Shown here: piece by piece, positions 11,518 to 64,000 of the stretch
Layout: each line of letters begins with the position of its first letter
Numbering within the stretch: position 1 is the stretch's first letter
Assembly: GCA_020850535.1 (NCBI GenBank)
Contig: JADZEM010000116.1
Span: 45,419 to 109,418, forward strand
Direction: 5' to 3'
DNA: 64,000 bases
DNA from: Chloroflexota bacterium
GTDB lineage: Bacteria; Chloroflexota; UBA6077; JACCZL01
Translations under genes and position numbers: made by a program
Notes under the pieces: model-generated
The model's input: the letters and a program-made list of their open reading frames with translations, nothing else
Database searches by the model: none
What the model was told of the DNA's origin: nothing

Positions 11518-11523
11518 CCGCCG

Positions 11524-40538: not shown

Positions 40539-40593
40539 CCCTACGGGTTCGGTCTGCCGCGCAGGCGAGAAGCCGACAGGCACCGGGCGTCGG

Positions 40594-40944
40594 CTACCAG
40601 ATGCCCAGCTCGACCTTCGCTTCCTCACTCGCCATCGTGCGCGGATCCCAGCGCGGCGTCCAGACGAGATTCATGTTCACGTCCTTGATGGCCGGGAACG
40701 TCGTGGTCAAGACAGCGTGCGCCTGGGTCTGGATCATCGGGCCGAGCGGGCAGGCCGGGGTGGTGAGCGTCATATCGACGATCACCTTCTTCTCGTCCTC
40801 AACCGTGTTGACGCCGTACACCAGCCCCAAATCGACGATGCTGATGCCCAGTTCGGGGTCGTACACGGCGCGCAACGCCTGCATGATCTCGTGCTCGGAC
40901 GGCAGCGCGGCAGCCTGCGCGGTGCTCTCTTGCTCAGTAGACAT
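40594..40944 (-). CDS. DUF59 / SufT-like (MIP18 family) Fe-S cluster assembly protein.
   Basis: 116 aa. ALRAVYDPELGISIVDLGLVYGV...VDMTLTTPACPLGPMI has the conserved Cys in the TTPxC motif. Confidence 0.7.
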   Translation of the reverse strand: MSTEQESTAQAAALPSEHEIMQALRAVYDPELGISIVDLGLVYGVNTVEDEKKVIVDMTLTTPACPLGPMIQTQAHAVLTTTFPAIKDVNMNLVWTPRWDPRTMASEEAKVELGIW

Positions 40945-44136: not shown

Positions 44137-44173
44137 GCGCTCCCCTCGAATCGCCAGGGTCGTCGCGGCGCGG

Positions 44174-44990: not shown

Positions 44991-45897
44991 GATGCCAACC
45001 GCTGCCCCCACGCCGGCCGAGGCCGCTCCTCTGGCCGCATCACGGCTTGCCGACCGCCATCCGGTCGGCCCTGAGCACGAGGTCGTGACCCGCATTCGAC
45101 CGCCGGCCCCAGGTTTCGGCGTCGATCTGGCCGAGCTGTGGCAGTATCGACACCTGTTCGCAGCGCTCGTCTGGCGCAACGTCCGCATCGAGTTCGACGC
45201 CACCCGGCTCGGCTCGATCTGGGCTGTCGCGCGGCCGGTCCTGTTCACCCTGGTGTTCGTACTGTTCCGAGGCTTCTCGGGCGCCAACACCCGGGTTGAC
45301 CTGCCGTATGCGCTCTACGTCTTCAGTGGGCTGGTGCTCTGGACCTACTTTCTGGACGCCGCGACGTCGTCGGCGGGCGCGATCCGGGTGGACTCGGCCC
45401 TGCTGACGAAGGTCTACTATCCGCGCCTGCTGACGCCGCTGGTGCCAGTCGTCGCGGCGTTGATCTCCATCGGGATTGCCGCCGTGCCGCTCATCGGCAT
45501 GATGGTCTGGTTCGGGGTTCATCCCGGCTGGCAGCTGATCCTGCTGCCGCTGGTGCTGGTGCAGGCGATGGCCCTGTCGCTTGGCGTCGGCACCATCATC
45601 TCGTCGATGTCGATTGAGAATCGGGACTGGGAACGGGCGCTGGCCTTCATCCTGAGCGTGGGCCTGTGGATGTCCCCGGTCATCTACGCGCCGAGCATGA
45701 TCCCCGAGCCGTTCTCGACGCTCTACCACCTGAATCCGATGGTCGGCGTGCTGCTGTCGTTCCGGGCCGCCCTCTTCGACGGCTTCCCACTGCCGGCCTG
45801 GGAGTGGGGCTACTCCTGGCTCTGCACACTGGCGATCCTGGCGGTCGGCATCTGGGCGTTCCGACGCTCCGAAGCCTCGCTGGCGGACCGGCTCTGA
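44991..45897 (+). CDS. ABC-2 type polysaccharide/glycan export permease (Wzm/TagG/KpsM-like).
   Basis: 302 aa from ATG 44991. AELWQYRHLFAALVWRNVRIEFDATRLGSIWAVARP is a typical ABC-2 permease N-terminus. Six TM helices. Confidence 0.8.
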
Positions 45898-47276
45898 TGG
45901 CGCCGCAGACGCGGTCGCTGGCGATCTCGGCACGGGGGATCTCGAAGCAGTACACCCGTGGACAGGCGGGCGGCTGGTCCGTCCACGGCGGCCTGCGCGG
46001 CGCGGTCAAGGCGCTGCTCGGCCGGGCCGCGCCGAAGAAGGCGCGGGAGCCTGACACGTTCTGGGCGCTCGACGACATCACGTTTGACATCGCACGGGGC
46101 GAGCGCGTCGGCATCGTGGGGCGAAACGGCGCGGGCAAATCCACGCTGCTCAAAGTGCTCTCGCGCGTCGTCTTCCCGACCTCCGGCGAGGCCGAGATTC
46201 GTGGCCGCCTGACATCCTTGTTGGAGGTCGGGACCGGCTTCAACGAGAACCTGACCGGCCGCGAGAATGTCTACCTCAACGCTTCGATTCACGGCCTCAC
46301 GCGCGCCGAGATCGATGCCCGCTTCGACGAGATCGTGGACTTCGCCGGGGTGCGGCCCTTCCTGGACACGCCCGTCAAGCGCTATTCGAGCGGCATGCAG
46401 ATGCGGCTGGCGTTCGCGGTGGCCGCCCACCTGGACCCTGATATCCTGTTGCTGGACGAGGTGCTGGCCGTCGGCGACCTCTCGTTCCAGCAGAAGTGCC
46501 TGGAGCGGGTGGAGGGGCTGGTCAACGAGGGCCGCACGCTGGTGTTCGTGTCGCACAGCCTGGACGCGATTACCCGCTTCTGCGACCGCTGCCTGTGGAT
46601 CGACGGCGGCAAGCTGCGGATGGACGGCCGGTCCGAGCAGGTGGTCGAGGTCTACCTGGAAGAGCTGGCCGGCATCCGGTCCAGCCGCGACTGGTCGTCC
46701 GGATTGGGATTGCCGTTGTCGGGCCTCGGACGCGCGCCTGCGGCGACTGACAGCCGCCCTGGCGACGACGACGTGCGGCTCGTCGGGGCGCGGATCATCG
46801 GGACGGACGGCGACGAGCGGTCCAGCGTGCCCGTGGATGAGCCGTTCGGCATTGAAGTCACCTTCGACATCCTGCGCGAGGGCAACAACATCCAGCCTGC
46901 CCTGCACTTCAAGGGGCAGACCGACCAGATCCTGTTCGTCGTGGCCTACACGGACGCCGAGTGGCTGGAGCGCCCGCCGCCAGTCGGACGCCACGTCGCG
47001 ACGGCCTGGGTCCCAGCCCACCTGCTGAATGTCGGCATCATCTACGTTACCGTGGTGCTGCAGACGCCAGACCCGTTCCAGACCCATTGCGCCGTAGAAC
47101 GGGCCGTCTCCCTGAACGTCTTCGAGCGGTTCGGGGCGGAGGGCACGGCGCGTGGCCTCTACGCCCGTGAGTTTCCGGGGGCGGTGCGCCCACGCCTGGC
47201 CTGGGACACCCACCGGAGCGTTCCCATCGAGGATACCGCCGCGTCGGCCCCTGCCGCCGAGCCGGTGACCCCATGA
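45897..47276 (+). CDS. ABC transporter ATP-binding protein (Wzt/TagH/KpsT-like) with C-terminal extension.
   Basis: Walker A GRNGAGKST, signature YSSGMQMRLAFA, Walker B ILLLDEVLAVGD. The C-terminal domain of about 200 aa may bind substrate. Confidence 0.85.
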   Translation: MAPQTRSLAISARGISKQYTRGQAGGWSVHGGLRGAVKALLGRAAPKKAREPDTFWALDDITFDIARGERVGIVGRNGAGKSTLLKVLSRVVFPTSGEAEIRGRLTSLLEVGTGFNENLTGRENVYLNASIHGLTRAEIDARFDEIVDFAGVRPFLDTPVKRYSSGMQMRLAFAVAAHLDPDILLLDEVLAVGDLSFQQKCLERVEGLVNEGRTLVFVSHSLDAITRFCDRCLWIDGGKLRMDGRSEQVVEVYLEELAGIRSSRDWSSGLGLPLSGLGRAPAATDSRPGDDDVRLVGARIIGTDGDERSSVPVDEPFGIEVTFDILREGNNIQPALHFKGQTDQILFVVAYTDAEWLERPPPVGRHVATAWVPAHLLNVGIIYVTVVLQTPDPFQTHCAVERAVSLNVFERFGAEGTARGLYAREFPGAVRPRLAWDTHRSVPIEDTAASAPAAEPVTP

Positions 47277-48553
47277 CCGCCCGTCCGCCAGCAGCCACCA
47301 GCGACAGCGCTGCCATGCTCGCTCGGTCGGAGGCGCAGTTGCGGGTGCTCCACGAGCTGCGCGTCGAAGCGCGTCTACGGCCAGACTTCGAGGCCCACTA
47401 CGTCGGCTTCCTACGTGCCCTGCGCGAGCGCCTTCACCCGCGCGGCGTCTACGACGCTCGCACGATTCGCCTGGCGAACGGCCTGACCTTCCAGGTCGAC
47501 CTGGGCGACCGGCTCGGGTGCGACGTGTTCTACGGCTACTACGATGAACGCTTTGAGGCTGGCCTGTTCGTGGAGCTGCTGGCGGCCGGCCAGACGATGT
47601 TCGACGTCGGGGCGAACTTTGGGTACTACGCCGTTCACTGCGCGCACGCCGTTGGCGCGGCAGGCGCGGTCCACGCCTTCGAGCCAGATCCCGCCGCCGC
47701 CGCCCTCCTCCGCGAAAATGCCTGTGCGAACGGGCTGGACGGCTGGCTGACGCACCACGCGGCAGCCGTCTCGGACCACAACGGCGCAACCGAGTACCAC
47801 CTTGCGGAGGAAGCGGCGTTCAGCGGCATGACCTCGACGGGCCGCTCGGCGGTGCGCGGGGTCGTACAGGTGCCGACGCGCAGCCTGGACTCAGTAGCAG
47901 CCGAGCATGGCGTCACGGCAATCGATGCCCTGAAGATCGATGTGGAAGGCCATGAGGCCAAGGTCTTGCGCGGAGCGGCTGGCCTGCTCGAGCGGTCACC
48001 CGACCCGCTGGTCATGCTGGAAGTGAGCGCGAAAAACCTGACGGACGAGGCTCGAAGCGCGCTGACGGCGGCGCTGCGGCCGATCTTTGCCGCTGGTTTC
48101 GTCGGGCTGATCCCCGACCTGTCCTCTGGTGCTGGACTGCGCGCAGTCATCACGCCGACTGAGGCCGCCAGCCTCCCCAGCGCAAACCTTCTCCTGGTCC
48201 GCGCGGGCGGCGAACGCGAGCGGCAGCTCCGGGCAGCGGTCGCCAGGCGACGGTCGACTGCCTCGCCGCTCCTCGACGTCGAGCCGGTCGACGCCGACGC
48301 CCGCGTGCTCCGGCTGGTGGCGGGGCCCGATCCAGAGTTCATCGCCGCCGCCCTGCGGGACAAGTCGGACGCGGAGGGGCGGGCGACCACGCTCGCCGCC
48401 GAGGTCAGCGAGCTGCGCACTGAGATCGGGCGGCTACGGGCCGAGCGCGCCGCGCTGCGGGCTGAGGTGCGTCGTCTGGGCTCCACACCGGTCGGACTGG
48501 CCGTTCGCGCAGCGCTGAAGCTTGCGCGGACGGTGGTGGGCGGTCAGCGCTAG
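47273..48553 (+). CDS. FkbM-family methyltransferase with C-terminal coiled-coil.
   Basis: MFDVGANFGYYAVH...HAFEPDP...KIDVEGHE. The start overlaps the ABC ATPase stop (ATGA). Confidence 0.75.
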   Translation: MTARPPAATSDSAAMLARSEAQLRVLHELRVEARLRPDFEAHYVGFLRALRERLHPRGVYDARTIRLANGLTFQVDLGDRLGCDVFYGYYDERFEAGLFVELLAAGQTMFDVGANFGYYAVHCAHAVGAAGAVHAFEPDPAAAALLRENACANGLDGWLTHHAAAVSDHNGATEYHLAEEAAFSGMTSTGRSAVRGVVQVPTRSLDSVAAEHGVTAIDALKIDVEGHEAKVLRGAAGLLERSPDPLVMLEVSAKNLTDEARSALTAALRPIFAAGFVGLIPDLSSGAGLRAVITPTEAASLPSANLLLVRAGGERERQLRAAVARRRSTASPLLDVEPVDADARVLRLVAGPDPEFIAAALRDKSDAEGRATTLAAEVSELRTEIGRLRAERAALRAEVRRLGSTPVGLAVRAALKLARTVVGGQR

Positions 48554-48568
48554 GCCGGGGCGCACGTC

Positions 48569-49702
48569 ATGCCGAGCCGCTCACTCCGCATCCTCTACGA
48601 CCACCAGATGTTCGCGCTTCAGCGGTTCGGCGGCATCACGCGCATCTTCGTCGAGCTGGCACGGCGGCTCTCGGCGCGCGACGACTGCGAGATCTACTGG
48701 CATCGTGGGTATCACCAGGACGGCTACGACGTCTCCGACTTCCAGGCCCGCCTGGCCCGCTACTGGAGCATCGACCGGCGGCCGCCAGTCATCGGCGGTT
48801 GGCCGCGCGAACGGATCAACCGCCACGCCTTCCGCTGCTTCGCCCGCACGATCTGGGGTGGCGTGGACATCTACCACCCGTCCTACTTCGAGGCTGGCCT
48901 GCTCGACATCCCCAGGACCGGGCACGTCGCCGTGACCGTCTACGACATGATCCTTGAGCGGTTCATGGCCGATCAGCCGCGCGTCCGGGCGCAGATCGCG
49001 GGGAAGCGCCGGCTGGTCGAGCGGGCAGACCTGGTGTTCGTGATCTCGGAGCACACCCGCCGGGACGTCGTCGAGTTGCTGGGCGTCGATCCCGCGCGGA
49101 CGGTCCTCACCTACCCGGCCAGCGACCTCGCCAGCGTGCCGGCCGCATCGCTCCCTCAGGGGTTGGTCGAACGGCCCTACCTGCTCTACGTGGGTCCGCG
49201 CTCGAAGTACAAGAACTTCCCGCTGCTGCTGGAGACGTTCCGTCAGTCTGCGTGGCTGCGGCGTGAGCTTCGCGTCGTCTGCCTGGGCGGCGGACCGTTC
49301 CTGGAGCCGGAGCAGCAGTTCCTGCGCGACCACGCCCTGACGGAGTGCTTCACGCAGGTGAGCGGCGACGACCGCATCCTCAAGGCCCTCTACGAGCGGG
49401 CCGTCGCGCTGGCCTGGACGAGCCACTTCGAGGGGTTTGGCATCCCGCCGCTCGAAGCGATGGAGGTCGGCTGCCCGGTCGTCTGCGCGCCGACCTCCTC
49501 GATGCCGGAGGTTGTCGGAGACGCCGCGCTGTTCTTCGATCCGGACCGCGCCGACGAGTTGGCCGAGCGCCTCCAACAGATCGCAGAGGACACGGCGCTG
49601 CGCCGACGGCTCATCGCCGGCGGCAGGGGCCGGGCGCGGCTGTTCTCGTGGGACGCGATGACGGCGGCCACCCTCGACGGCTACCGCCGGCTGGTACACT
49701 GA
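48569..49702 (+). CDS. Glycosyltransferase family 4 (GT-B, GT1-like).
   Basis: C-terminal EX7E region EGFGIPPLEAMEVGCPVVCAPTSSMPEVVGDAALFFDP. Confidence 0.8.
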   Translation: MPSRSLRILYDHQMFALQRFGGITRIFVELARRLSARDDCEIYWHRGYHQDGYDVSDFQARLARYWSIDRRPPVIGGWPRERINRHAFRCFARTIWGGVDIYHPSYFEAGLLDIPRTGHVAVTVYDMILERFMADQPRVRAQIAGKRRLVERADLVFVISEHTRRDVVELLGVDPARTVLTYPASDLASVPAASLPQGLVERPYLLYVGPRSKYKNFPLLLETFRQSAWLRRELRVVCLGGGPFLEPEQQFLRDHALTECFTQVSGDDRILKALYERAVALAWTSHFEGFGIPPLEAMEVGCPVVCAPTSSMPEVVGDAALFFDPDRADELAERLQQIAEDTALRRRLIAGGRGRARLFSWDAMTAATLDGYRRLVH

Positions 49703-49739
49703 CGCAGAGATCCATGCAGCCGAACGTGAGCGCCGCTCG

Positions 49740-50648
49740 ATGACCGCTTCCCCACCATCTGGCCCCATCCGACCGCTGGTGTCGGTCGTGATTGGCAGCT
49801 ACAACCGCCGACCGTTCTTGCAGCAGGCCATCGAGACCGTGCGCGAGAACGGGGCCAACCTGAGCTACGAGACCATCGTCGTGGACGGCGGCTCGACCGA
49901 CGGCTCGGTCGGCTGGCTGGTGAAGCAGAAGGACGTGGTCACCATCGTCCAGCACAATCGCGGCGAGTTTCGCGGCCAGCCGATCCGCCGCCGAAGCTGG
50001 GGCTACTTCATGAACCTCGGGTTCAAGAGCGCCCAGGGCCACTACATCCTGATGATCAGCGACGACTGCCTGCTGGTCCCCGGAGCGATGGAACGCGGAG
50101 TCGAGCATCTCCAGCAACTTAAGGCGGCCGGACGGAAGATCGGCGGTGGCGCGTTCTACTTCCGGAACTGGCCCAACGAGCGCGACTACTACGTGCAGCG
50201 CACGCTCGGCGGCAAGCTGATGGTCAACCACGGCCTCTACACACGCGTGGCACTGGAGGCGGTCGGCTTCGTGGACGAGGACCGCTACGGCTTCTACAAG
50301 GCAGACGGCGACCTGTGCCTCAAGATGTGGGAGGCCGGCTTCGAGGTGGTGGACTGCCCCGGCGCGTACGTGGAGCACTTCGAGGGCGCGAACCGGGCCG
50401 TTCGCAAGAGCAACCGCGAGCTGCTGGCGCGGGACCGCGAAGCGTATCGTCAGCGCTGGGAGGGCATTTTCTGGGATCCAGAAGGCCCTGAGCTGCGTGA
50501 CCAGTTGACGGCCGCGTTTGACGACCCGCACCGCACGGCCAGCCGCTTCCCGAGCGACGCGCCGCCCCTGCCAAAGCGCCTGGTGCGCCGGGCCGGCTCG
50601 ACCGGCAAGCGCGCGCTCGGCCACCTGACCCGGCTGGTCAATGCCTAG
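49740..50648 (+). CDS. Glycosyltransferase family 2.
   Basis: VSVVIGSYNRRPFLQQAIETV...ETIVVDGGSTDGS is a GT-A DXD-type N-terminus. Confidence 0.8.
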   Translation: MTASPPSGPIRPLVSVVIGSYNRRPFLQQAIETVRENGANLSYETIVVDGGSTDGSVGWLVKQKDVVTIVQHNRGEFRGQPIRRRSWGYFMNLGFKSAQGHYILMISDDCLLVPGAMERGVEHLQQLKAAGRKIGGGAFYFRNWPNERDYYVQRTLGGKLMVNHGLYTRVALEAVGFVDEDRYGFYKADGDLCLKMWEAGFEVVDCPGAYVEHFEGANRAVRKSNRELLARDREAYRQRWEGIFWDPEGPELRDQLTAAFDDPHRTASRFPSDAPPLPKRLVRRAGSTGKRALGHLTRLVNA

Positions 50649-52347
50649 CGCCGCGCGACTGCTCAAGCGGCTGCTGTCACGCCCAAGCGCCCCGCAGCCC
50701 GATCCGCTCCCGTCCGGCCACATCCTGCCAGACTGGAACGCCCTGCTCGACACCGACCGCGCCCTCTGGGAGCGCGCGAAAGCTCAGGCTCAGGCCGGCC
50801 CGGGCGTGCTGCTCGCCACGAACGTCGGCGGGCACTCGCCGGCCACGGTCGTCGAGAGCGTCCTGGCCGTGGCGCTGACGCTGCGCGGCGCACGCGTCCA
50901 CACGCTCGTCTGCGACAAGGTCATGCCGGCGTGCCTGCGAGCGCAGGCGGACAACGTCCTCGATCCCGGCGTCTTCTCTCGCTACGAGCTGCCAGAGAAG
51001 CTGTGCGGCAGTTGCTACCCCATCGGCGAGCACGTTTACGGGCCGCTCGGGCTGCCGCACCACCGATTCTCGGAGCTGCTCTCGCCGGACGAGCAGCGGG
51101 CCTGCCGCGCACTGGCCGACTCGACGCCCTACGAGGCGATCCCTGGCGCCATCGTGGACGGGCTGCCCATCGGGGAGCAGGCCTACGCCGGGGCGCTCCG
51201 CTACTTCGCGCGGGGCGACCTGGACGACGAGCCGTACGGCGAGAGCGTGCTGCGCCGCTACTTCGAGGCCTCGTTGCAGGCCGCCAGCGTGACCCGCTCG
51301 CTGCTCGCCACCCGCCGATTCGAGGCCGCCTGTATGCACCACGGCATCTACGTGCCCCAGGGCGTCAGCAGCGCCGTCGCGCGGCAGCTTGGCGTGCGCG
51401 TCTCGACCTGGAACCCGGCCTACCGCAGCAACTGCTTCATCTTCAGCCTACACGACACCTACCACCACACCCTGTTGGACGAGCCGACGGAGTCGTGGGA
51501 CACGATGCCCTGGACCGCCCAGATGGAAGAGCAGATCCTGAACTACCTCAAGAGCCGCTGGTCCGGCTCGCGTGACTGGATCTGGTTCCACGACCGTCCA
51601 GACGAGGACTTTGCGAAGTACGCCGCCGAGATCGGGCTGGACCTCGGGAAGCCGATCGTCGGGATGCTCTCCAACGTCATCTGGGACGCGCAACTGCACT
51701 ACCGTGCCAACGCCTTCCCGACTATGCTCGCCTGGGTGATCGAGACGATCCGGTACTTCGAGCGGCGGCCAGACCTCCAGCTGCTGCTGCGGGTCCACCC
51801 CGCCGAGCTGCGGGGCACGGCACGCTCGCGCCAGCCGCTGGTGGACGAGATCGCGCGGGCATTCCCGACGCTCCCGCCCAACGTCTTCATCATCCCGCCA
51901 GAGTCACAGGTCTCGACCTACGCCGCGATGGCCCAGGCGAACGCCGTCATCATCTTCGGCACCAAGACCGGCGTCGAGCTGACCTCGATGGGTATTCCCG
52001 TGATCGTGGCCGGCGAGGCCTGGATTCGGAACAAGGGGCTGACCCTCGACGCCAGCTCGGCGGCCGGCTACTTCGAGATCCTCGACGGCCTGCCACTGGC
52101 CGCGCGGATGCCGGCCGAACAGGTCGCCCGCGCCCGCAAGTACGCCTACCATTTCTTCTTCCGGCGGATGGTCCCGCTGGAGTTCATGGAGGTGACCGGC
52201 GCGTGGCCGCCCTACCGCGTGGCGCTCGAATCGCTCGGCGACCTGCTGCCTGGGCGGCACGCCGGGCTGGACATCATCTGCGACGGCATCCTGAACGGCT
52301 CGCCGTTCATCTACCCGGCCGAGGAGCTGGGCGTTCATGACCGCTGA
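50641..52347 (+). CDS. Large GT-B-like protein of unassigned family, paralog A (possibly KpsC/KpsS 'capsule polysaccharide biosynthesis' type).
   Basis: 568 aa and soluble. The C-terminal half has a Rossmann-like NAVIIFGTKTGVELTSMGIPVIVAGEAW. The N-terminal half is Cys-rich: HTLVCDKVMPACLR...CGSCYP. It overlaps its neighbours by 8 and 11 nt. The family assignment is not verifiable from sequence alone. Confidence 0.5.
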   Translation: MPSAARLLKRLLSRPSAPQPDPLPSGHILPDWNALLDTDRALWERAKAQAQAGPGVLLATNVGGHSPATVVESVLAVALTLRGARVHTLVCDKVMPACLRAQADNVLDPGVFSRYELPEKLCGSCYPIGEHVYGPLGLPHHRFSELLSPDEQRACRALADSTPYEAIPGAIVDGLPIGEQAYAGALRYFARGDLDDEPYGESVLRRYFEASLQAASVTRSLLATRRFEAACMHHGIYVPQGVSSAVARQLGVRVSTWNPAYRSNCFIFSLHDTYHHTLLDEPTESWDTMPWTAQMEEQILNYLKSRWSGSRDWIWFHDRPDEDFAKYAAEIGLDLGKPIVGMLSNVIWDAQLHYRANAFPTMLAWVIETIRYFERRPDLQLLLRVHPAELRGTARSRQPLVDEIARAFPTLPPNVFIIPPESQVSTYAAMAQANAVIIFGTKTGVELTSMGIPVIVAGEAWIRNKGLTLDASSAAGYFEILDGLPLAARMPAEQVARARKYAYHFFFRRMVPLEFMEVTGAWPPYRVALESLGDLLPGRHAGLDIICDGILNGSPFIYPAEELGVHDR

Positions 52348-53152
52348 CGCCTTGCTGGATCGACTGGGCCGGCTGCCGGTCGGTCGGCTGGTGTCGCCAG
52401 CGCGCCGCCGCTGGCTGTTGAAGCTGCTGCAGCGGCGCGCGCGTCGGTACGGCTATTCGCTGGTGCCGGCCCCGCCGCCAACGGCTGGCGTGGCACAGTG
52501 GGACATCTGGACGTGGGTGCGCGCCACCTCGACCATCCGGACCGTCGTAGACATCGGCGCGAACGACGGCGTCTACGCCCGCTACCTGAACGAGTTCTTT
52601 CGCCCGGCCGCCGTGCACGCGTTCGAGCCGCTGCCCGGCTGCCAGCCGAAGCTCGCCGCGCTGAAGCGGGAGATGCCAAACGTCACGCTGCATCAACTGG
52701 CGCTCTCCGATCGCGCTGGCGAGGCGACGTTCTACAGCAACGAGTATGCGCCGGCCTCTTCGCTGCTCGAAGTGAGCGCCGTGTCCCGCCGCGCCTTCCC
52801 CGAGACCGAGCGCGCGACGGCCACCGCCGTCCAGGTGGCGCGCCTCGACGACGTGCTGCCAGCAGACTCGCTCGAACGCGACATCCTGGTCAAGATCGAC
52901 GTCCAGGGCGTCGAGGACCGGGTGATCCGGGGCGGGCGCGCGCTCTTCTCGGCGGCATCCGTCGTGCTGATCGAGATGGCCTTCGTCGCCGTCTACGAGA
53001 ACCAGCCGCTCTTCGAGGAAGTCCACACCCTGCTCGCCGGGTGCGGCCTGCGGCTGGCCGGCTTCAAGAATCAGATCGACGACGCCGAGAGCGGCCAGCC
53101 CCTCTTCGCGCACTGCCTGTACCGCCGCCCCGACCACCGAACGCCAGACTGA
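52337..53152 (+). CDS. FkbM-family methyltransferase (second copy).
   Basis: VVDIGANDGVYARYL...HAFEPLP...KIDVQGVE. Confidence 0.75.
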   Translation: MTADALLDRLGRLPVGRLVSPARRRWLLKLLQRRARRYGYSLVPAPPPTAGVAQWDIWTWVRATSTIRTVVDIGANDGVYARYLNEFFRPAAVHAFEPLPGCQPKLAALKREMPNVTLHQLALSDRAGEATFYSNEYAPASSLLEVSAVSRRAFPETERATATAVQVARLDDVLPADSLERDILVKIDVQGVEDRVIRGGRALFSAASVVLIEMAFVAVYENQPLFEEVHTLLAGCGLRLAGFKNQIDDAESGQPLFAHCLYRRPDHRTPD

Positions 53153-53340
53153 CCTGGGAGCCATCGTTGCGGCCTGCTACCGTCTTCCCCGATCGTGGCC
53201 GGTTCGGCCGGTACGTCGGCCATGTCCTATCATCCTCTGCGCGATTCCAGACCGAAAGCCGTAGGTAGACGCTCCTTGCTGGTGAACTCGCTCGATTCAG
53301 GACCGGCCTGTCGCGCGGATCGGCCGCCGCGAGGCCGCTC

Positions 53341-55059
53341 GTGAACCCGATCATCCGCCGAGCGCGGACCGCTGTCGCCCGGGCGCTGGGACGCCGACGC
53401 AAGGGTGTGCCGACAGCGCACGATCCGCGCTTCCCGGACTGGCAACAGATCCTGGCCGCCAACCGCGAGCAGTGGGACGCTGCCCGGCGGCGCGCGGCCG
53501 GCGGCCCGCCGGTGCTGGTCGCCAGCACGGTCGGCGGGTACGGCGCCGGCTCGGTGTTCGAGAGTATGCTGTCTGTGGCGCTGACCCTGCGGGGCGCGCG
53601 CGTGCACACCCTGCTCTGCGACCGCGCCCTGCCCGGCTGCCAGCGGGCCGAGTACACGGACGTGCCAGACCCGCGCGTGCTGGTGGACTACCAGTTGCCG
53701 GACCGCCTCTGCGATGGCTGTTTCGCCACCGGCCGCTACAACTTCGCGCCGCTCGGCCTGAGCGACCACCGGGTCGGGGCGCTGGCGTCGCGGGCTGAGA
53801 AACACGAGGCCCGTCGCATCGCGAACGAGACCCCCATCGGCGAGATCCGGGACTTCGCCTGGAATGGCCTGAACATCGGCGAGCACGCCTACGCTGGCGC
53901 GCTCCGCTACTTCGCGCGGGGCGACCTGGAAGCTGAGGCGCTGGGCGAGCCGGTCCTGCGCCGCTACCTGGAAGCCTCGATCCTGATGGCCGCCGCCTCA
54001 ACCCGGTTGATCCAGCAGGAAGGCATCCAGATCGCCGCGTTCAACCACGGGCTGTACGTGCCGCAGGGCGTCCTCGGGGAGGTCTGCCGGCGGCTCGGCG
54101 TGCGGGTTGCCAACTGGAACCCGGCCTACCGCACCTCCTGCTTCATCTTCAGCCACGGCGACACCTATCACCACACGCTGATGGCCGAGCCAACCGAAGC
54201 CTGGGACACGATGGCGTGGACGCCGGCGCTCGAAGCCCAGATTCAGGCGTACCTGAAGAGTCGGTGGTCGGGCTCGCGGGACTGGATCTGGTTCCACGAC
54301 GAGCCAGACGAGGATTTCGCGGCGTATGCCCGCGAGGTCGGCCTGGATCTCAAGAAGCCGATCGTTGGGCTGCTCACCAACGTGATGTGGGACGCCCAGC
54401 TGCACTACCCGGCCAACGCCTTCCCGAGCATGCTGGACTGGGTGCTCCGCACCATCGAGTGGTTCAAGGGCCGTCCCGATCTCCAGCTGCTGATTCGGGT
54501 GCATCCCGCCGAGATCCGAGGGACAGCCCGCTCGCGGCAGCCCCTGGTGCCGGAGATCGAGAAGGCGTTCCCAGACCTGCCGCCGAACGTCTTCATCATC
54601 CCGCCCGAGTCGCAGATCTCGACCTACGCCGCCGTGGCGACCGTGAACGCGGCCATCATCTACGGCACCAAGACGGGCGTCGAGCTGACCTCGTCCGGCA
54701 TCCCGACCATCGTGGCGGGCGAGGCCTGGATCCGAAACAAGGGCATCACCCTGGACGCCTCGTCCCCAGACGACTATTTCGGCATCCTCGACACGCTGCC
54801 GCTCGCGGGCCGGATGCCGCCCGAGCAGATCGAACGGGCCCGCCAGTACGCCTTTCACTTCTTCTTCCGACGGATGGTGCCGGTGCCGGCGATGGTCCCC
54901 ACCAAAGCCGTTCCGCCGTTCCGCGTCGCCATCGACTCGCTGGACGATCTGCTGCCCGGCAAGCAGCCGGGCCTGGACATCATCTGTGACGGCATCCTGC
55001 GCGGCTCGCCGTTCATCTACCCGGCCGAGACCTACGGGCTCCACGACGATGGACGGTAG
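53341..55059 (+). CDS. Large GT-B-like protein of unassigned family, paralog B.
   Basis: 572 aa, collinear with paralog A. For example, NPAYRTSCFIFSHGDTYHHTLMAEPTEAWDTMAWT versus NPAYRSNCFIFSLHDTYHHTLLDEPTESWDTMPWT. GTG start after a 189-bp gap. Confidence 0.5.
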   Translation: MNPIIRRARTAVARALGRRRKGVPTAHDPRFPDWQQILAANREQWDAARRRAAGGPPVLVASTVGGYGAGSVFESMLSVALTLRGARVHTLLCDRALPGCQRAEYTDVPDPRVLVDYQLPDRLCDGCFATGRYNFAPLGLSDHRVGALASRAEKHEARRIANETPIGEIRDFAWNGLNIGEHAYAGALRYFARGDLEAEALGEPVLRRYLEASILMAAASTRLIQQEGIQIAAFNHGLYVPQGVLGEVCRRLGVRVANWNPAYRTSCFIFSHGDTYHHTLMAEPTEAWDTMAWTPALEAQIQAYLKSRWSGSRDWIWFHDEPDEDFAAYAREVGLDLKKPIVGLLTNVMWDAQLHYPANAFPSMLDWVLRTIEWFKGRPDLQLLIRVHPAEIRGTARSRQPLVPEIEKAFPDLPPNVFIIPPESQISTYAAVATVNAAIIYGTKTGVELTSSGIPTIVAGEAWIRNKGITLDASSPDDYFGILDTLPLAGRMPPEQIERARQYAFHFFFRRMVPVPAMVPTKAVPPFRVAIDSLDDLLPGKQPGLDIICDGILRGSPFIYPAETYGLHDDGR

Positions 55060-55957
55060 GCGGCTGGCGCGTGGGGCGCGACGCGTCGTGCGACGCCTCG
55101 CGCACGAGGTCAAGGAGCAGGTCCGCCCGACCCCTCCCCCGCCCTCCCCCGTCGAGCTGTATCTCGCAGGCGGGCGCGTGCCCTGGAGCGAGGGCTACGG
55201 GCGGTATCGGCGTGAGGTGACCGTCAAGGCCCTCAACGACCCTGACCTGATGCGTCGGTTCCGCGGCGGCGAGCCGCTCCCCGAGGGCTACGGCAGCAAG
55301 CTCGACGAGCGCGTGGTTGAGTATCCGTGGGTGCTCTCGCGGCTGCCTGACGGCCCGGGCACGCTGCTCGACGCCGGCTCGACGCTCAGCTATCCGTTTA
55401 CACTGGAGCTGGCGTCCGTGGCGGCCAAGAAGCTGGTGGTGGTGACACTCGCGCCCCCCGCCCACATGGCCCACGCCGCCAACGTCTCGTACCTGTTCGA
55501 CGACCTCCGCAATCTGATGCTGCGCGACGCCGTGTTTGATACCGTGGTATGCATCAGCACGCTGGAGCACATCGGCCTGGACAACACGCAGCTCTACTCC
55601 GAGGATGCCCGCTTCGCCGAGCACAACCTGTCCGGCTACCAGCCGGCCCTGGACGAGTTGCGCCGCGTCCTGAAGCCGGGCGGCACGCTGCTGCTGACGG
55701 TGCCCTTCGGCAAAGCCGAAGACCACGGCTGGCTGCAGCAGTTCGACCGTGACGGGATCGGGCGGATCGTCGGGCGGTTCGGCGGCGCGCTGGTCAGCGA
55801 GGCGTACTTCGCGCATGGGCCGGCCGGCTGGCAGGTCACGACTGCCGAGGCCTGCGCCGACGCTCACTACTTCAACGTCCACGCCAGCAAGGAGCCGGCC
55901 CCGGACGGCGCCGCCGCCGCGCGCGCGGTGTGCTGCCTGGAGCTGGTCAAATCGTGA
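55049..55957 (+). CDS. SAM-dependent methyltransferase.
   Basis: LLDAGSTLSYPF (motif I-like) ... VLKPGGTLLLTVPFG. ATG 55049 overlaps the upstream gene by 11 nt. Confidence 0.6.
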   Translation: MDGRRLARGARRVVRRLAHEVKEQVRPTPPPPSPVELYLAGGRVPWSEGYGRYRREVTVKALNDPDLMRRFRGGEPLPEGYGSKLDERVVEYPWVLSRLPDGPGTLLDAGSTLSYPFTLELASVAAKKLVVVTLAPPAHMAHAANVSYLFDDLRNLMLRDAVFDTVVCISTLEHIGLDNTQLYSEDARFAEHNLSGYQPALDELRRVLKPGGTLLLTVPFGKAEDHGWLQQFDRDGIGRIVGRFGGALVSEAYFAHGPAGWQVTTAEACADAHYFNVHASKEPAPDGAAAARAVCCLELVKS

Positions 55958-57297
55958 GCACCCCACCGGGCGGCAGCACGGGCCAGAGTCCCCCGACGGG
56001 CCAGAGTCCGCTGACGGTGGCGATCAACGCCCAGGTGAACCCGGCCAACGCCGGCGGCGTCGAGTCAGCGCTCCAGGGGCTGATCACCTACCTCAGCGAG
56101 CTGCCGCTGGAGGAGCGCTATCTGCTGCTCTCGACGGTCAAGTACGCGCCGTCGATGGAGAAGCTGGCGGCCGGCAAGCTCCAGGTCGTCCCCTGGCCCT
56201 TCCCGCAGAAGGCGTACGCGCCATACCGCAGCATGACGCGGCGCTGGTCGCGGTGGCAGGCGCGGGCCGGCGCGCTCGGGCCGGGTGTGGACGCCCTGCA
56301 CTGGAGCTGGTGGCAGGCCCGCCGCGCGATGGCCCGCAACCCGAACGCCCGCCAGTCGGACGCCTTCCTGCACTCCCGCGGGGTCTCGGTGGTGCATTTC
56401 GCCTACGGCGTCCGCTTCGGCACCACGCTGCCGTTCCTGTACGAGCCGTGGGACTTGCAGCACCGTCACTATCCAGAGTTCTTCAAGCCGGGCGAGTGGG
56501 AGTGGCGCGACCAGCTGTACCGTGAGGGGTGCGAGCAGGCGACGCTGGTCGTCACGGCGACACGCTGGACGAAGCGCGACATCATCGAGCAGTACAAGAT
56601 CCCGGCCGAGCGGATCGCCGTGATCCCACGCGGCCCCTGGGTGACGCCGACCATGCCCGGCCCGCGCGATGTCGAGAAGGTCCGCAAGCAGTACGGGCTG
56701 CCGAGCAAGTTCGCGTTCTACCCGGCGATGAGCTTCCCGCACAAGAACCATCTGCGGCTGTTCGAGGCCCTGGCGATCCTGCGCGACCGCCACGGCCTGA
56801 CGCTGCCGCTGGTCTGCACCGGCCGCCAGTACGAACCGTACTGGCCGGAGCTGCTGGCCGGCGTCGAGCGGTTCAACCTGCAACGTCAGGTCTTCCTGCT
56901 GGAGTCGGTGCCGGCCGACACGTTGGCGGCCATCTTCAAGTCCGCGTCGCTGCTGGTGTTCCCATCGCTGTTCGAGGGGCTGGGGCTGCCAGTGATCGAA
57001 GCCCTGGAGTACGAGTTGCCGGTGGTGTCGTCGCGGGCGACCTGCCTGCCGGAGGTGGCCGGCGACGCTGCGCTCTACTTCGACGGCAGCGACGTGGATT
57101 CGATCGTCGATGCCCTGCTGCGGGCCGAACGCGATCCAGACTCGCTCAAGGCCGCCAGACGGGCCGCGCCGGCCGCCCTCGCCCGATTCTCCTGGCCGAA
57201 AGCGGCCCAGACGTTCATCGCCTGCTACCGGGCGGTGGGCGGCGCGCCACTGACGGCGGAGCAGCAAGCCCTCTATCAGGAAGCCATCGAAGCATGA
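55954..57297 (+). CDS. Glycosyltransferase family 4 (second copy).
   Basis: SLFEGLGLPVIEALEYELPVVSSRATCLPEVAGDAALYFD. GTG 55954 overlaps the upstream stop (GTGA). Confidence 0.8.
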   Translation: MSTPPGGSTGQSPPTGQSPLTVAINAQVNPANAGGVESALQGLITYLSELPLEERYLLLSTVKYAPSMEKLAAGKLQVVPWPFPQKAYAPYRSMTRRWSRWQARAGALGPGVDALHWSWWQARRAMARNPNARQSDAFLHSRGVSVVHFAYGVRFGTTLPFLYEPWDLQHRHYPEFFKPGEWEWRDQLYREGCEQATLVVTATRWTKRDIIEQYKIPAERIAVIPRGPWVTPTMPGPRDVEKVRKQYGLPSKFAFYPAMSFPHKNHLRLFEALAILRDRHGLTLPLVCTGRQYEPYWPELLAGVERFNLQRQVFLLESVPADTLAAIFKSASLLVFPSLFEGLGLPVIEALEYELPVVSSRATCLPEVAGDAALYFDGSDVDSIVDALLRAERDPDSLKAARRAAPAALARFSWPKAAQTFIACYRAVGGAPLTAEQQALYQEAIEA

Positions 57298-58244
57298 ATG
57301 CTGCGCCGTTGACGCTGTCGCCTGTCGATCCTTCTGTCAAACTCGCCGTCGTGCTTGGCACCTACAACCGCCTCGACAGTCTCAAGATCTGCATCGACAG
57401 TATCGTTGCCCAGACACGGACGCCGACCATCGTCTACGTGTCCGATGCCGGTTCCACGGATGGCACCGTCGAGTACCTGCAGTCCATCGCCTCGGATCGG
57501 CTGGTGCCGATCCTGGTCGGCAGGAAGCTCGGCCAGGCGCGCGCGTACAACGACGTCTTCATGGCGCTCACCACACCGTACGTCGTCTGGATCTCAGACG
57601 ACAACAAGATCGTGAATCACGGGCTGGACCGTGCGGTAGACATCCTCGACCACATGCCGAAGGTCGGGATGGTCGGCGTAAAGGTGAAGGATGTCGAAGG
57701 GCCGTTCACCGAAGCGCCGTACCTGGGGGCGGTGTCGTCCATCGGCATCCTGAACGTCAACCAGGGGATGCTGCGGACGCACGCGCTCCAGCAGGTCGGC
57801 GGCTTCAGCGAGCGCTTCCGCGACTACGGCATCGACCCTGACCTGACGGCGAAGATCCTGTTCGATGGCTGGGACGTGGCCTACACGAAGGCCGTCGGCA
57901 TCCACCACTACCGGGCCTGGGCAGACGGCTCGGCGGCCAGCGGGGAGCAGCGCGCCCGCCAGCTTGGCTACGTCAACCTCTACGCCGAGAAGTGGGGCCA
58001 GTACGCCCCGCCCGATCTGCTCTGGAAGGCGCGCAAGAAGGCCTGGGGCGCGTTCCAGAAGGCGACCGGCCTGCGGATCAACTCGTCACGCACGATCCTG
58101 GGCCTGAACGGCCGCGACTGGTGCAACCTACTGACGGGGCGCTACATCTGCCTGCTGGACGCCCTCCAGAACCGGCGCCGGCCGTACCACCTGCTCCAGC
58201 GAGCGCCCCGCTGGAGCCGCCCGCTGCCGCCCGACCCTGCCTGA
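57294..58244 (+). CDS. Glycosyltransferase family 2 (second copy).
   Basis: LAVVLGTYNRLDSLKICIDSIVAQTRTPTIVYVSDAGSTDGT. ATG 57294 overlaps the upstream stop (ATGA). Confidence 0.75.
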   Translation: MNAAPLTLSPVDPSVKLAVVLGTYNRLDSLKICIDSIVAQTRTPTIVYVSDAGSTDGTVEYLQSIASDRLVPILVGRKLGQARAYNDVFMALTTPYVVWISDDNKIVNHGLDRAVDILDHMPKVGMVGVKVKDVEGPFTEAPYLGAVSSIGILNVNQGMLRTHALQQVGGFSERFRDYGIDPDLTAKILFDGWDVAYTKAVGIHHYRAWADGSAASGEQRARQLGYVNLYAEKWGQYAPPDLLWKARKKAWGAFQKATGLRINSSRTILGLNGRDWCNLLTGRYICLLDALQNRRRPYHLLQRAPRWSRPLPPDPA

Positions 58245-63949: not shown

Positions 63950-64000
63950 TCAGCGCGCGTCCACGCTGGCAGCGACCGGCGAGGCCGTTGCCCCGAGATG
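63950..64000 (-). CDS. 3' end of an upstream minus-strand gene (partial, about 17 codons in window).
   Basis: A TGA stop is on the minus strand at 63950-63952, 15 nt upstream of the SDR start, and the open frame continues to the window edge. The product is unknown. Confidence 0.25.
   Translation of the reverse strand, partial: HLGATASPVAASVDAR

Follow-up and report, generated by a model that had tools for sequence, protein, structure and literature searches.

The region from 44992 to 58244 on the plus strand of the 64-kb stretch of DNA analyzed here (the window) is an ABC-transporter glycan-assembly operon of 11 translationally coupled genes in a Chloroflexi genome. Two of these genes, big1 and big2, encode proteins of about 570 amino acids that, as judged from sequence comparison and an AlphaFold model, are a widespread, uncharacterised relative of the KpsC and WbbB Kdo transferases. 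A convergent operon on the minus strand, running from 59744 to beyond 64000 and lying outside the region covered by an earlier note on this DNA, encodes enzymes of sugar-acid synthesis and, from its gene content, probably makes the donor sugar of the large proteins. The genes of both operons are listed in Table 1.

The earlier note had described a co-directional, tightly packed gene array at 44991-58244. Such an array is present on the plus strand; the end of this interval is exact, while its start is one base off. Thirteen genes had been claimed, but 11 were found, which is also the sum of the note's own list, and the gaps of the array leave no room for another ORF with coding signal. All ORFs of the array have a GC3 between 0.80 and 0.92. 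The four overlaps previously reported were all found (1 nt for wzm/wzt, 4 nt for wzt/fkbM1, 8 nt for GT2a/big1 and 11 nt for big1/fkbM2), together with two more, of 11 nt for big2/MT11 (with the MT11 start at 55049) and 4 nt for GT4b/GT2b. The sole real gap, 188 nt, lies 5' of big2. A scan of the array identified no promoter-like site whatsoever and no internal terminator-like site on the plus strand, and the locus is syntenic with that of an 85%-identical relative.

Table 1. Genes of the glycan-assembly operon and of the convergent sugar-acid operon, in window coordinates
Gene	Predicted product	Coordinates	Strand	Matches and remarks
wzm	ABC-2 type permease, 301 aa	44992..45897	+	PF01061 E 1.9e-8, above curated cut-off
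wzt	ABC ATPase with ~200-aa C-terminal extension, 459 aa	45897..47276	+	ABC_tran E 2e-23
fkbM1	FkbM methyltransferase with short C-terminal coiled-coil-like helix and amphipathic end, 426 aa	47273..48553	+	PF05050 E 1e-23, TIGR01444 E 4e-32
GT4a	GT-B retaining-type glycosyltransferase, 377 aa	48569..49702	+	Glycos_transf_1 E 3e-25, Glyco_transf_4 E 6e-9
GT2a	GT-A glycosyltransferase, 302 aa	49740..50648	+	Glycos_transf_2 E 1e-15
big1	KpsC/WbbB-like putative CMP-ulosonic-acid transferase, 568 aa	50641..52347	+	
fkbM2	FkbM methyltransferase, 271 aa	52337..53152	+	PF05050 E 3e-21, TIGR01444 E 1e-29
big2	paralog of big1, 572 aa	53341..55059	+	64% aa identity to big1 over 547 residues
MT11	class-I SAM methyltransferase, 302 aa from ATG at 55049	55049..55957	+	Methyltransf_11 E 6e-8
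GT4b	GT-B glycosyltransferase, 447 aa from GTG at 55954 (alternative start 55930)	55954..57297	+	Glycos_transf_1 E 2e-21
GT2b	GT-A glycosyltransferase, 316 aa	57294..58244	+	Glycos_transf_2 E 9e-16
transketolase	transketolase-like TPP enzyme, 638 aa, last gene of operon	59744..61660	-	Transketolase_N, Transket_pyr, Transketolase_C
CMP-sugar synthetase	CTP_transf_3 enzyme, 255 aa	61721..62488	-	PF02348 E 1e-20
SDR	SDR oxidoreductase, sugar-acid type, 270 aa	63122..63934	-	adh_short_C2 E 2e-42
neuB	NeuB-type ulosonic acid synthase, last 16 codons and stop, runs off window	63950..64000	-	translation HLGATASPVAASVDAR, then stop

Profile searches against Pfam and NCBIfam placed every domain call of the earlier note above curated thresholds: ABC2_membrane, ABC_tran, two FkbM domains (PF05050/TIGR01444, passed by both proteins), Methyltransf_11, two GT4 (Glycos_transf_1/Glyco_transf_4) and two GT2 (Glycos_transf_2). 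Its picture of the locus as a glycan assembly system of the Wzm/Wzt kind, including three methyltransferases, two GT4 and two GT2 enzymes and two large GT-B-like paralogs, is supported, and of its overall interpretation the ABC-dependent glycan locus stands, while the duplicated module (see below) and the count of 13 do not. It was also right that Wzx, Wzy and an initiating phosphoglycosyltransferase are missing; none occurs among the 51 ORFs with coding signal in the whole 64-kb window, which encodes no WecA/TagO/WbaP-type initiating polyprenyl-phosphate glycosyl-1-phosphate transferase. Initiating enzymes of ABC-transporter O-antigen systems are normally encoded elsewhere, so that this absence says little and does not exclude membership in such a system. 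The likeness to KpsC and WbbB, the convergent downstream operon, the terminator-like architecture of FkbM1 and the putative carbohydrate-binding tail of Wzt did not figure in the earlier note.

The exporter genes, wzm and wzt, match PF01061 and PF00005 above cut-offs and are followed by glycosyltransferase genes. A GGAGGAG sequence lies 9 nt 5' of the wzm ATG, and the best NCBIfam matches of Wzm are to KpsM and galactan Wzm, each far below cut-off. The window Wzt matches Wzt_C (PF14524) at E 3e-4 and 21.2 bits, under the 30.4-bit cut-off. We scanned 10 Wzt sequences in all, the other nine being orthologs that adjoin the 570-aa gene in other genomes; eight, including the window's own, matched Wzt_C, with one (L063, 40.7 bits) above the cut-off. 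No solved Wzt carbohydrate-binding module (CBM) was found by sequence. This Wzt, with its putative carbohydrate-binding tail, probably exports the chains.

The earlier note had read the operon as a duplicated module. Each half does contain one member of every family, and the large genes are 73% identical in nucleotide sequence over 1.5 kb. However, pairwise comparison revealed only the 570-aa pair as duplicates: FkbM1/FkbM2, GT4a/GT4b and GT2a/GT2b are each about 29% identical in amino acid sequence, with no DNA similarity, and the halves differ in gene order. Moreover, each FkbM, GT4 and GT2 copy has its own ortholog (45-62% identity), and these orthologs neighbor one another in loci of cyanobacteria and Verrucomicrobiota where both members of a pair accompany a single 570-aa gene, so that these pairs are distinct enzymes and not copies. 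Lineage-specific duplication is seen for the 570-aa gene only. It is thus very improbable that a four-gene module (FkbM, GT4, GT2, large paralog) was duplicated and makes two similar repeat structures; duplication is ruled out for all genes but the large pair. By sequence, big1 and big2 are true paralogs and a recent lineage-specific duplicate, big2 forming a sister clade of big1 within this Chloroflexota lineage only and keeping all invariant residues of the family.

Several of the neighboring genes recur beside the 570-aa gene elsewhere. Orthologs of GT2a (60-69% identity) adjoin it in cyanobacteria and Verrucomicrobiota, and a GT2 is fused with the 570-aa protein in P0244 and P0246. Orthologs of fkbM2 lie directly 3' of it in four loci (L045, L071, L009 and L017), and three loci (L063, L076 and L072) repeat the order 570-aa gene, MT11, GT4b. 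A Methyltransf_11 domain is fused to the 570-aa protein in P0327; the length of MT11 given here agrees with its ortholog in L001, the closest relative. FkbM1 has a short amphipathic end and no kinase domain; a methyltransferase domain and a coiled-coil-like tail are retained by its orthologs in other phyla. By the crude composition rule that is the sole basis of the coiled-coil call, this tail is 123-865 aa long in those orthologs and 29 aa long in the window protein, whereas L001 has none (0 aa). FkbM1 is a candidate chain terminator that probably caps the chains.

At least 439 species, belonging to at least 10 phyla, carry the 570-aa family, among them the cultured Moorena and Geminicoccus, and many genomes have a single gene copy. 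Identity across phyla is 53-60%, and invariant residues are spread along the whole length. No significant sequence match to any solved structure was obtained for these proteins. The best matches of the AlphaFold model are the retaining beta-Kdo transferases KpsC, the closest fold, and WbbB, among the top three; these matches span about 280-290 residues and rank first by Z and TM-score, and we conclude from the model that big1 and big2 have the modified GT-B fold of KpsC and WbbB. An hhalign comparison of 34 family sequences with 61 KpsC-N sequences aligned the C-terminal domain only (Prob 79%, E 1.6e-5), placing N345-x3-D349 on KpsC Q156-x3-D160 and HP on HP, and the alignment to KpsS gave the same register. 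N345, D349, H386 and P387 are invariant in the 34 sequences, as is E72 of the N-terminal domain; for the N-terminal half, to which the general base belongs, no alignment with KpsC was obtained. In the known enzymes the His of HP protonates the CMP phosphate, and QXXXD provides the nucleophilic Asp and a carboxylate-binding Gln (PMC10148158, PMC12887879). A strict QXXXD is not present in the 570-aa proteins: Asp349 falls on the KpsC nucleophile and is invariant, but the Gln position is an invariant Asn (NXXXD), and we therefore file these proteins as a related new family and not within GT107 or GT99. PF05159 (Capsule_synth) matches big1 at 16.1 bits, below the 20-bit gathering threshold, and does not match big2; 20 of the 34 members match it at E <=0.1, the best at 3e-6.

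The retaining ulosonic-acid clan comprises KpsC (GT107), KpsS, the N-terminal module of WbbB (GT99), KpsS1 (GT118) and KrkA (GT140). With KpsC the 570-aa proteins share the HP motif, the Asp at the nucleophile position and the Asp-HP spacing, and the paralog pair of the window resembles the two KpsC modules. As in the clan, their genes are accompanied by those of a CMP-sugar synthetase and an ABC transporter. At about 570 aa they are longer than a module of the clan, which has about 320 aa; they have large additional N- and C-terminal parts and four invariant cysteines, and NXXXD in place of an 'absolutely conserved' QXXXD. The putative donor pathway linked to them is NeuB-based with a transketolase and is not the KdsA/KdsB Kdo pathway, and the family is found in Chloroflexota, Cyanobacteria, Acidobacteriota and other phyla, not in the capsule loci of pathogens.

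In this genome a Na+/H+ exchanger gene stands between the two operons. The window ends within the neuB gene, whose predicted C-terminus, HLGATASPVAASVDAR, resembles that of NeuB (HEHIGAAATAATARS) in the close relative L008, where the gene order is NeuB-SDR-CTP3-TK. The other enzymes of the operon score under the cut-offs of their nearest families: the transketolase-like enzyme with NF004559 (350 bits), the CMP-sugar synthetase with PseF-like proteins (E 1e-39; KdsB matches are weaker) and the SDR with mannonate, gluconate-5 and KduD-type dehydrogenases in NCBIfam. Orthologs of the synthetase (56-74% identical) adjoin the 570-aa gene across phyla, and those of the SDR (62-66%) lie in the cassettes of L009, L029, L038 and L044. 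Of 80 GTDB loci, 40 have the transketolase gene no more than 10 kb from the 570-aa gene, in most cases immediately upstream of it, and NeuB, CTP3 or TK is that close in 26 of the 36 fully flanked loci (about 70%). The cassette linked to the family, NeuB / (HAD phosphatase) / SDR / aldehyde dehydrogenase / CMP-sugar synthetase / transketolase, extends over at least 10 phyla; the transketolase is always present, and the SDR and an alpha-ketoglutarate-semialdehyde-dehydrogenase-like enzyme usually are. The order CTP3-TK-570-aa gene occurs in Acidobacteriota, Gemmatimonadota, Chloroflexota, Cyanobacteria, Verrucomicrobiota and Proteobacteria. Aldehyde dehydrogenase and HAD phosphatase genes were found neither in the window nor near the cassette of its closest relative.

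The conserved cassette resembles the CMP-nonulosonate pathways of Kdn and sialic acids in combining a NeuB (TIGR03569-like), a HAD phosphatase, which belongs near the KdsC/Kdn-9-P phosphatase families, and a CTP_transf_3 enzyme, although all three score under equivalog cut-offs. None of the known routes to Neu5Ac, Kdn, Pse, Leg and Kdo includes an equivalent of the transketolase, SDR and semialdehyde-dehydrogenase-like steps; for Kdn we know of no transketolase or aldehyde dehydrogenase step. Searches of an open-access library found no description of a pathway of NeuB, SDR, aldehyde dehydrogenase, CMP-synthetase and transketolase, and the cassette appears to be an undescribed pathway, beside the 570-aa family, for a CMP-activated, sialic-acid-like sugar.

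We consider it rather probable that the locus as a whole assembles, for export by an ABC transporter, a methylated glycan with an acidic ulosonic (sialic-acid/Kdo-like) sugar. The cassette would supply a CMP-activated ulosonic acid, and big1 and big2 would each transfer it with retention, by way of an Asp349-sugar adduct. Two different positions would serve as acceptors, on a lipid-linked glycan built at the cytoplasmic face of the membrane by the GT4 and GT2 enzymes on a primer from an unlinked initiating enzyme. FkbM2 and MT11 would O-methylate residues, and MT11 may have the sugar that big2 adds, or a position beside it, as its target, since its domain is fused to the 570-aa protein in other organisms. 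FkbM1 would cap the non-reducing end and halt growth, as WbdD does, and the C-terminal domain of Wzt would recognise the finished end for export by Wzm/Wzt.

Such a scheme follows the polymerase-terminator-CBM model (PMC11231755) of the O-antigens of E. coli O8/O9a (K. pneumoniae O5/O3, with WbdD) and K. pneumoniae O12, O4 and O7. The window has in common with these systems Wzm/Wzt, the lack of Wzx/Wzy and several glycosyltransferase modules in one operon, and its Wzt may share their C-terminal carbohydrate-binding domain (a sub-threshold match here). As WbdD does, FkbM1 would combine a methyltransferase, a putative coiled-coil (by the composition rule) and an amphipathic C-terminus; unlike WbdD, its methyltransferase is FkbM-type, it lacks the kinase domain and its coiled-coil is very short in this genome. 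In further contrast to the O-antigen producers, the host is a Chloroflexi bacterium that may lack an outer membrane or LPS, and no ligase was found for the window locus. The predicted product also resembles the teichulosonic acids of Actinobacteria, phosphate-free wall polymers of few repeats that contain a nonulosonic acid and are often methylated (PMC11481543, PMC13011467); the host here is high-GC and possibly monoderm. The example likened here, by literature description, is the Kdn-galactose wall polymer of Streptomyces coelicolor (cluster SCO4873-4882).

The large proteins may be read in other ways. A possible but doubtful alternative is priming of the KpsS/KpsC type, in which big1 and big2 would assemble, directly on a membrane lipid (e.g. 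phosphatidylglycerol), a short linker of ulosonic acid that contains two types of linkage; the linker would replace the missing initiating phosphoglycosyltransferase and then be extended by the GT4 and GT2 enzymes. The absence of an initiating enzyme from the window fits this but says little, as such enzymes are normally encoded elsewhere. KpsC is the closest fold, its two modules, which the paralog pair parallels, differ in linkage specificity (PMC10148158), both paralogs have basic N-termini, and the very strong conservation of both 570-aa domains across phyla suggests a conserved acceptor. Priming is at odds with the single copy in many genomes and with the absence of KpsE/KpsD-type partners, and the acceptor is not deducible from sequence. 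The rank of WbbB among the fold matches would also suit a terminal ulosonic acid cap, added by the 570-aa protein and read by the carbohydrate-binding domain of Wzt, with the methyltransferases merely decorating the chain. Capped systems always have a Wzt CBM (PMC11231755), Wzt_C is matched here (below cut-off) and in the orthologs, and 18 of the 36 fully flanked loci have wzm/wzt no farther than 10 kb from the 570-aa gene. Yet we consider a cap unlikely: the coiled-coil, which sits on the terminator in known systems (PMC11231755), is absent from the 570-aa proteins and present in FkbM1 orthologs, one cap needs no two paralogs, and so conserved an acceptor domain would be unexpected if the capped glycans vary between phyla.

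That the 570-aa proteins are generic GT-B or TagF-like (polyol-phosphate) transferases, with an unrelated cassette beside them, appears quite improbable. Their sequence similarity to KpsC is weak, given the sub-threshold Pfam scores and an hhalign match confined to the C-terminal domain, and some ordinary GT-B enzymes equal KpsC and WbbB by Foldseek E-value. However, the KpsC and WbbB matches are long and lead in Z and TM-score, the nucleophile Asp and the HP motif are aligned and invariant, and the cassette linkage, often with overlapping stop and start codons, repeats in many phyla.

We propose, tentatively and with low confidence, that the 570-aa proteins form a new retaining ulosonic-acid glycosyltransferase family (NXXXD) whose donor is an undescribed, chain-edited CMP-sugar acid. 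NeuB would condense PEP with an aldose (phosphate), the SDR would oxidise the penultimate hydroxyl to a ketol, the transketolase would take off the terminal two-carbon ketol unit, and the alpha-ketoglutarate-semialdehyde-dehydrogenase-like enzyme would oxidise the aldehyde so exposed. The second carboxylate formed in this way would make the product an ulosaric (dicarboxylic) acid. If this is true, the chain-editing pathway and its transferase would constitute a conserved, horizontally spread surface-glycan module of the 439 or more species, from 10 or more phyla, that carry the family.

The glycan assembly locus is a run of 11 co-directional genes on the forward strand (44992-58244) of a window with about 69% GC, as delimited by codon-position GC analysis and ORF listing; the earlier note had claimed 13, although its own list also sums to 11. 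The overlaps of 1, 4, 8 and 11 nt that it described are all real, and two further stop/start overlaps, of 11 nt and 4 nt, were found. The sole sizeable intergenic gap in the array is the 188 nt 5' of big2, which encodes the second of two large paralogs (big1, 568 aa; big2, 572 aa). A scan that has low power in this organism revealed no promoter-like sites inside the array and no forward-strand terminator-like sites. Family assignments above curated thresholds (Pfam, NCBIfam) were obtained for all array proteins except the large pair, for which the only match was a sub-threshold one of big1 to Capsule_synth (PF05159, E 0.008); the domain calls made earlier thus stand outside that pair. No Wzx, Wzy or initiating transferase, none of which had been evident in the array, is encoded by the 51 ORFs with coding signal scanned across the 64-kb window, and neither a ligase nor an outer-membrane export component was found there. 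Unlinked initiating enzymes are common in ABC-transporter pathways. Exact-sequence look-ups of window proteins gave no match. The NCBI version of big1 (P0001) starts later (492 aa, 100% identical to big1) and is named 'MAG: capsular biosynthesis protein [Chloroflexi bacterium]'.

Table. Features of the window and FkbM1 orthologs with long tails in loci of other genomes.
Feature	Sequence	Coordinates	Strand	Remark
wzm (ABC permease)	window	44992-45897	+	
wzt (ABC ATPase)	window	45897-47276	+	
fkbM1	window	47273-48553	+	
GT4a	window	48569-49702	+	
GT2a	window	49740-50648	+	
big1	window	50641-52347	+	
C91, C98, C122, C125 of big1	window	~50911-51015		N-terminal domain
fkbM2	window	52337-53152	+	
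big2	window	53341-55059	+	
MT11 (Methyltransf_11)	window	55049-55957	+	
GT4b	window	55954 (or 55930)-57297	+	
GT2b	window	57294-58244	+	
Na+/H+ exchanger	window	58388-59617	+	PF00999, E 6e-51; between GT2b and convergent transketolase
Transketolase	window	59744-61660	-	
Cytidylyltransferase	window	61721-62488	-	
Nudix hydrolase	window	62528-63058	-	between SDR and cytidylyltransferase
SDR	window	63122-63934	-	
NeuB, last 16 codons	window	63950-64000	-	
PMT_2-type GT-C	window	7111-8994	-	
PMT_2-type GT-C	window	11518-13872	+	
PMT_2-type GT-C	window	37603-39672	-	upstream pair
PMT_2-type GT-C	window	39072-40670	-	upstream pair
Region of the 2-phosphosulfolactate phosphatase (ComB-like, PF04029)	window	8675-11092	-	adjoins PLP-dependent enzyme and PMT_2 gene
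PLP-dependent enzyme	window	43006-44271	-	divergent from wzm
Dual-specificity/PTP-type phosphatase	window	44174-44803	-	divergent from wzm
FkbM1 ortholog	L071	3172-6939		
FkbM1 ortholog	L045	6776-9154		
FkbM1 ortholog	L025	6153-7610		
FkbM1 ortholog	L003	7117-8505		

The two large proteins belong to an extensive family of about 570 aa. More than 3,800 proteins were matched in a first search; at E 1e-30 or better, 1,383 clusters at 50% identity were counted, and family members occur in at least 439 GTDB species genomes from at least 10 phyla. Hosts include Chloroflexota, Cyanobacteria (Moorena, Gomphosphaeria, Cyanosarcina), Acidobacteriota, Gemmatimonadota, Proteobacteria (Geminicoccus and others), Verrucomicrobiota, Planctomycetota, Nitrospirota and Armatimonadota. 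Identity to big1 across phyla is 53-60%, with invariant residues spread over the whole length. PDB searches with big1 and with the family profile identified no solved relative, returning chance matches only. An AlphaFold model built from a 34-sequence alignment was confident (pLDDT 88.6, pTM 0.88). For profile-profile comparison, E. coli KpsC and KpsS were retrieved and a 61-sequence KpsC-N alignment was built. Against this alignment the family profile gave a match of Prob 79% and E 1.6e-5 over 122 columns (hhalign); matches to single KpsC or KpsS sequences were weak. The family segment N345-V-I-W-D349 pairs with KpsC Q156-T-F-N-D160, RVHPAE with KVHPDV, and GTKTGVEL...GEAWIRNKGLT with TSQYGFEA...GQPWYAGWGLT; the KpsS alignment has the same register. 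The N-terminal domains, where the general-base Glu is located in the clan, did not align to KpsC, relaxed hhalign yielding zero-confidence columns; E72 is one of the family's invariant acids.

In KpsC, WbbB and KrkA the Asp of the QXXXD motif is the nucleophile, to which Kdo becomes covalently attached as an adduct; the carboxylate of Kdo is bound by the Gln and the CMP phosphate by the HP motif (PMC10148158; PMC12887879). Because D349 and the HP pair align with these KpsC motifs, N345, D349, H386 and P387 are invariant among 34 family sequences, and 20 of the 34 match PF05159 (best E 3e-6), we read the 570-aa family, from its sequences, as a distant and new offshoot within the clan of retaining ulosonic-acid transferases, bearing an NXXXD variant of the motif. 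It falls outside both GT107 and GT99. Four Cys residues in the N-terminal domain of big1 are invariant in the same 34 sequences, which come from several phyla, and may form a structural metal site without a KpsC counterpart.

The arrangement of the array had been said to look like a duplicated module. Comparison of the half-clusters shows instead that only the large gene was duplicated. Big1 and big2 share 64% amino acid identity over 547 residues and 73% DNA identity over 1.5 kb, whereas identity is about 29% within each of the pairs FkbM1/FkbM2, GT4a/GT4b and GT2a/GT2b, which show no similarity at the DNA level. Neighbour-joining of 87 family members places the big1 clade (window, L001 and L006) and the big2 clade (window, L001, L007 and L008) as sisters, and their common ancestor node holds sequences of this Chloroflexota lineage only. 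GT2a and GT2b, like FkbM1 and FkbM2, have an ortholog apiece (45-62% identity), and these are neighbours in loci of cyanobacteria (L003, L025) and Verrucomicrobiota (L045, L071) with a single 570-aa gene, which argues for duplication of one gene and not of a module. The overall interpretation, a methylated glycan exported by an ABC transporter, is supported in part, and its module duplication is rejected.

The entire gene set recurs across phyla, not the 570-aa gene alone. The Opitutaceae locus L071 contains wzm, wzt, fkbM1, MT11, GT2a, a 570-aa gene, fkbM2, GT4a and GT2b, together with NeuB, SDR, aldehyde dehydrogenase, CTP_transf_3 cytidylyltransferase and transketolase genes, all 40-64% identical to the queries, which for NeuB and the aldehyde dehydrogenase were proteins of the Pyrinomonadaceae locus L005 and not of the window. 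Two sub-arrangements recur: GT2a, 570-aa gene and fkbM2 (plus GT4a and GT2b), and 570-aa gene, MT11 and GT4b. The window joins both, one per paralog. Fusion proteins were also identified, including Methyltransf_11-GT2-big (P0244), big-GT2 (P0246) and big-Methyltransf_11/23 (P0327). These GT2 and methyltransferase fusions mirror the gene order in the window and support a predicted physical cooperation of the large protein with GT2 and methyltransferase enzymes. P0256 and P0257 are also among the family's fusion proteins, and other fusion partners are a GSCFA domain and TPR repeats.

The 570-aa gene is frequently accompanied by a sugar-acid cassette. In L005 an overlapping series runs GT2, NeuB, a KdsC/Kdn-9-P-type HAD phosphatase, SDR, aldehyde dehydrogenase, cytidylyltransferase, transketolase and, last, the 570-aa gene. 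A tblastn census of 80 GTDB loci found, within 10 kb of the 570-aa gene, transketolase in 40 loci, aldehyde dehydrogenase in 38, cytidylyltransferase and NeuB in 37 each, SDR in 33 and phosphatase in 19. Full 10-kb flanks were available for 36 loci, and 26 of these contain NeuB, cytidylyltransferase or transketolase; among the remaining ones, several are the second copy of a genome in which the cassette accompanies the other. A cytidylyltransferase-transketolase-570-aa gene order recurs in many phyla. In the window the cassette forms a convergent operon directly downstream of the array, beyond the span that had been described; in the close relatives L001, L002 and L008, GT2b is followed by this operon at once (NeuB-SDR-cytidylyltransferase-transketolase in L008).

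Since the Na+/H+ exchanger gene is missing at this position in those three relatives, it looks like a local insertion splitting the glycan locus from the sugar-acid operon. The cassette slot between SDR and cytidylyltransferase is likewise variable, holding a Nudix gene in the window, an unrelated 182-aa ORF in L001 and nothing in L008. The window Nudix gene is a local insertion; its product could hydrolyse a nucleotide sugar. On the other side of the array, the divergent PTP-type phosphatase and PLP-dependent enzyme genes keep their position in L001 and L002. That this phosphatase stands in for the cassette HAD phosphatase missing in the window is pure speculation. One of the four PMT_2 genes in the window carries a fused NHL/SGL beta-propeller, and the upstream pair, about 4 kb from wzm, is adjacent with overlapping stop-to-stop frames. 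These enzymes could use lipid-linked sugars outside the membrane.

No cassette enzyme reaches the equivalog cut-off for any of the known Neu5Ac, Pse, Kdn or Kdo enzymes, and searches of the open-access literature found no published description of a NeuB/transketolase cassette, of ulosaric acids, or of FkbM/Wzt in Chloroflexi. In a chemically coherent route that we infer from the enzyme families, the SDR would oxidize the penultimate hydroxyl of an ulosonate to a ketol, the transketolase would cut off the two-carbon ketol unit, and the aldehyde dehydrogenase, which is closest to a family acting on 2-oxo-acid semialdehydes, would convert the new aldehyde to a second carboxylate; we hold this chain editing tentatively and judge it rather unlikely. 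Neither an aldehyde dehydrogenase nor a HAD phosphatase gene lies nearby in the window lineage, whose product may therefore differ. As the product, 3-deoxy-D-lyxo-heptulosaric acid (Dha) was dropped, since by our own stereochemical reasoning transketolase cleavage of a Kdn-type precursor would not yield a lyxo-configured acid. Reading the transketolase and cytidylyltransferase as DXS-like, CDP-polyol (teichoic-acid-like) enzymes was set aside because NeuB and a KdsC-type phosphatase occur in the cassette and because the TPP enzyme itself scored as transketolase, not DXS. Two cassette variants were seen, NeuB-HAD phosphatase-SDR-aldehyde dehydrogenase-cytidylyltransferase-transketolase with the SDR type of L005 (L005, L013, L032, L039) and a series without phosphatase and with the SDR type of the window (L009, L029, L038, L071 and the window). 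Their SDR types are only about 40% identical, and the variants may correspond to phosphorylated and free aldose substrates.

Where the acidic sugar would lie in the glycan can be considered together with the candidate terminator. By analogy with KpsS/KpsC it may belong to a lipid-linked primer, a placement that would account as well for the lack of an initiator and for the strong conservation of the acceptor domain, or it may occupy internal residues. It may instead form a cap, as with WbbB; against this, the coiled-coil is on FkbM1 and none is found on the 570-aa proteins. In six orthologs from other genomes the FkbM1 methyltransferase domain is followed by a charged tail, proline-free and coiled-coil-like in cyanobacteria and Verrucomicrobiota, that terminates in a short amphipathic helix. 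Measured tail lengths differ widely, from 0 aa in L001 and 29 aa in the window to 123-144 aa in the cyanobacterial orthologs, 224 aa in that of L045 and about 865 aa in that of L071. Known systems have a coiled-coil ruler protein that carries the terminating activity, and export is limited to capped chains through a carbohydrate-binding module of Wzt (PMC11231755). Because its architecture resembles that of a WbdD-type terminator, although the window's tail is short, we propose FkbM1 as the putative chain-capping enzyme. The window Wzt has a C-terminal extension of about 200 aa with a sub-threshold Wzt_C match. Wzt_C was matched in 8 of 10 Wzt proteins scanned, the window's included, and one of nine Wzt orthologs from 570-aa loci exceeded the gathering threshold; a sequence search of the tail against the PDB gave chance matches only.

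A Wzm/Wzt glycan locus with methyltransferases is as such ordinary. Its unusual side is a combination: the KpsC/WbbB-like family is very large, conserved and uncharacterised and has an altered catalytic motif, and in at least 10 phyla this family is coupled to a NeuB-transketolase cassette for a sugar acid that is itself undescribed. By published description, the teichulosonic acids of Actinobacteria, short wall polymers with Kdn that are often methylated, come closest as a product class for a host that is high in GC and possibly monoderm (PMC11481543; PMC13011467).

Should the FkbM1 tail act as a molecular ruler, the organisms carrying tails of such different length would be expected to make glycans of very different chain length. 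There are few retaining Kdo and nonulosonic-acid transferases; they are extremely divergent and went without annotation for a long time, and to our knowledge GT99, GT107, GT118 and GT140 were each a discovery of its own. The locus points to another, much larger transferase family beside these, mostly in environmental phyla, with targets open to testing: the putative catalytic Asp, the defined set of cassette enzymes, and cultured carriers in which to look for an acidic sugar, possibly a new one, of chloroflexotal, cyanobacterial and acidobacterial envelopes. Such carriers are Geminicoccus harenae CPCC 101083 (L033), Moorena producens 3L (L041), Moorena bouillonii PNG (L040) and filamentous cyanobacterium CCP5 (L009). 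The locus would further carry the polymerase-terminator-CBM model of export past Gram-negative O-antigens.
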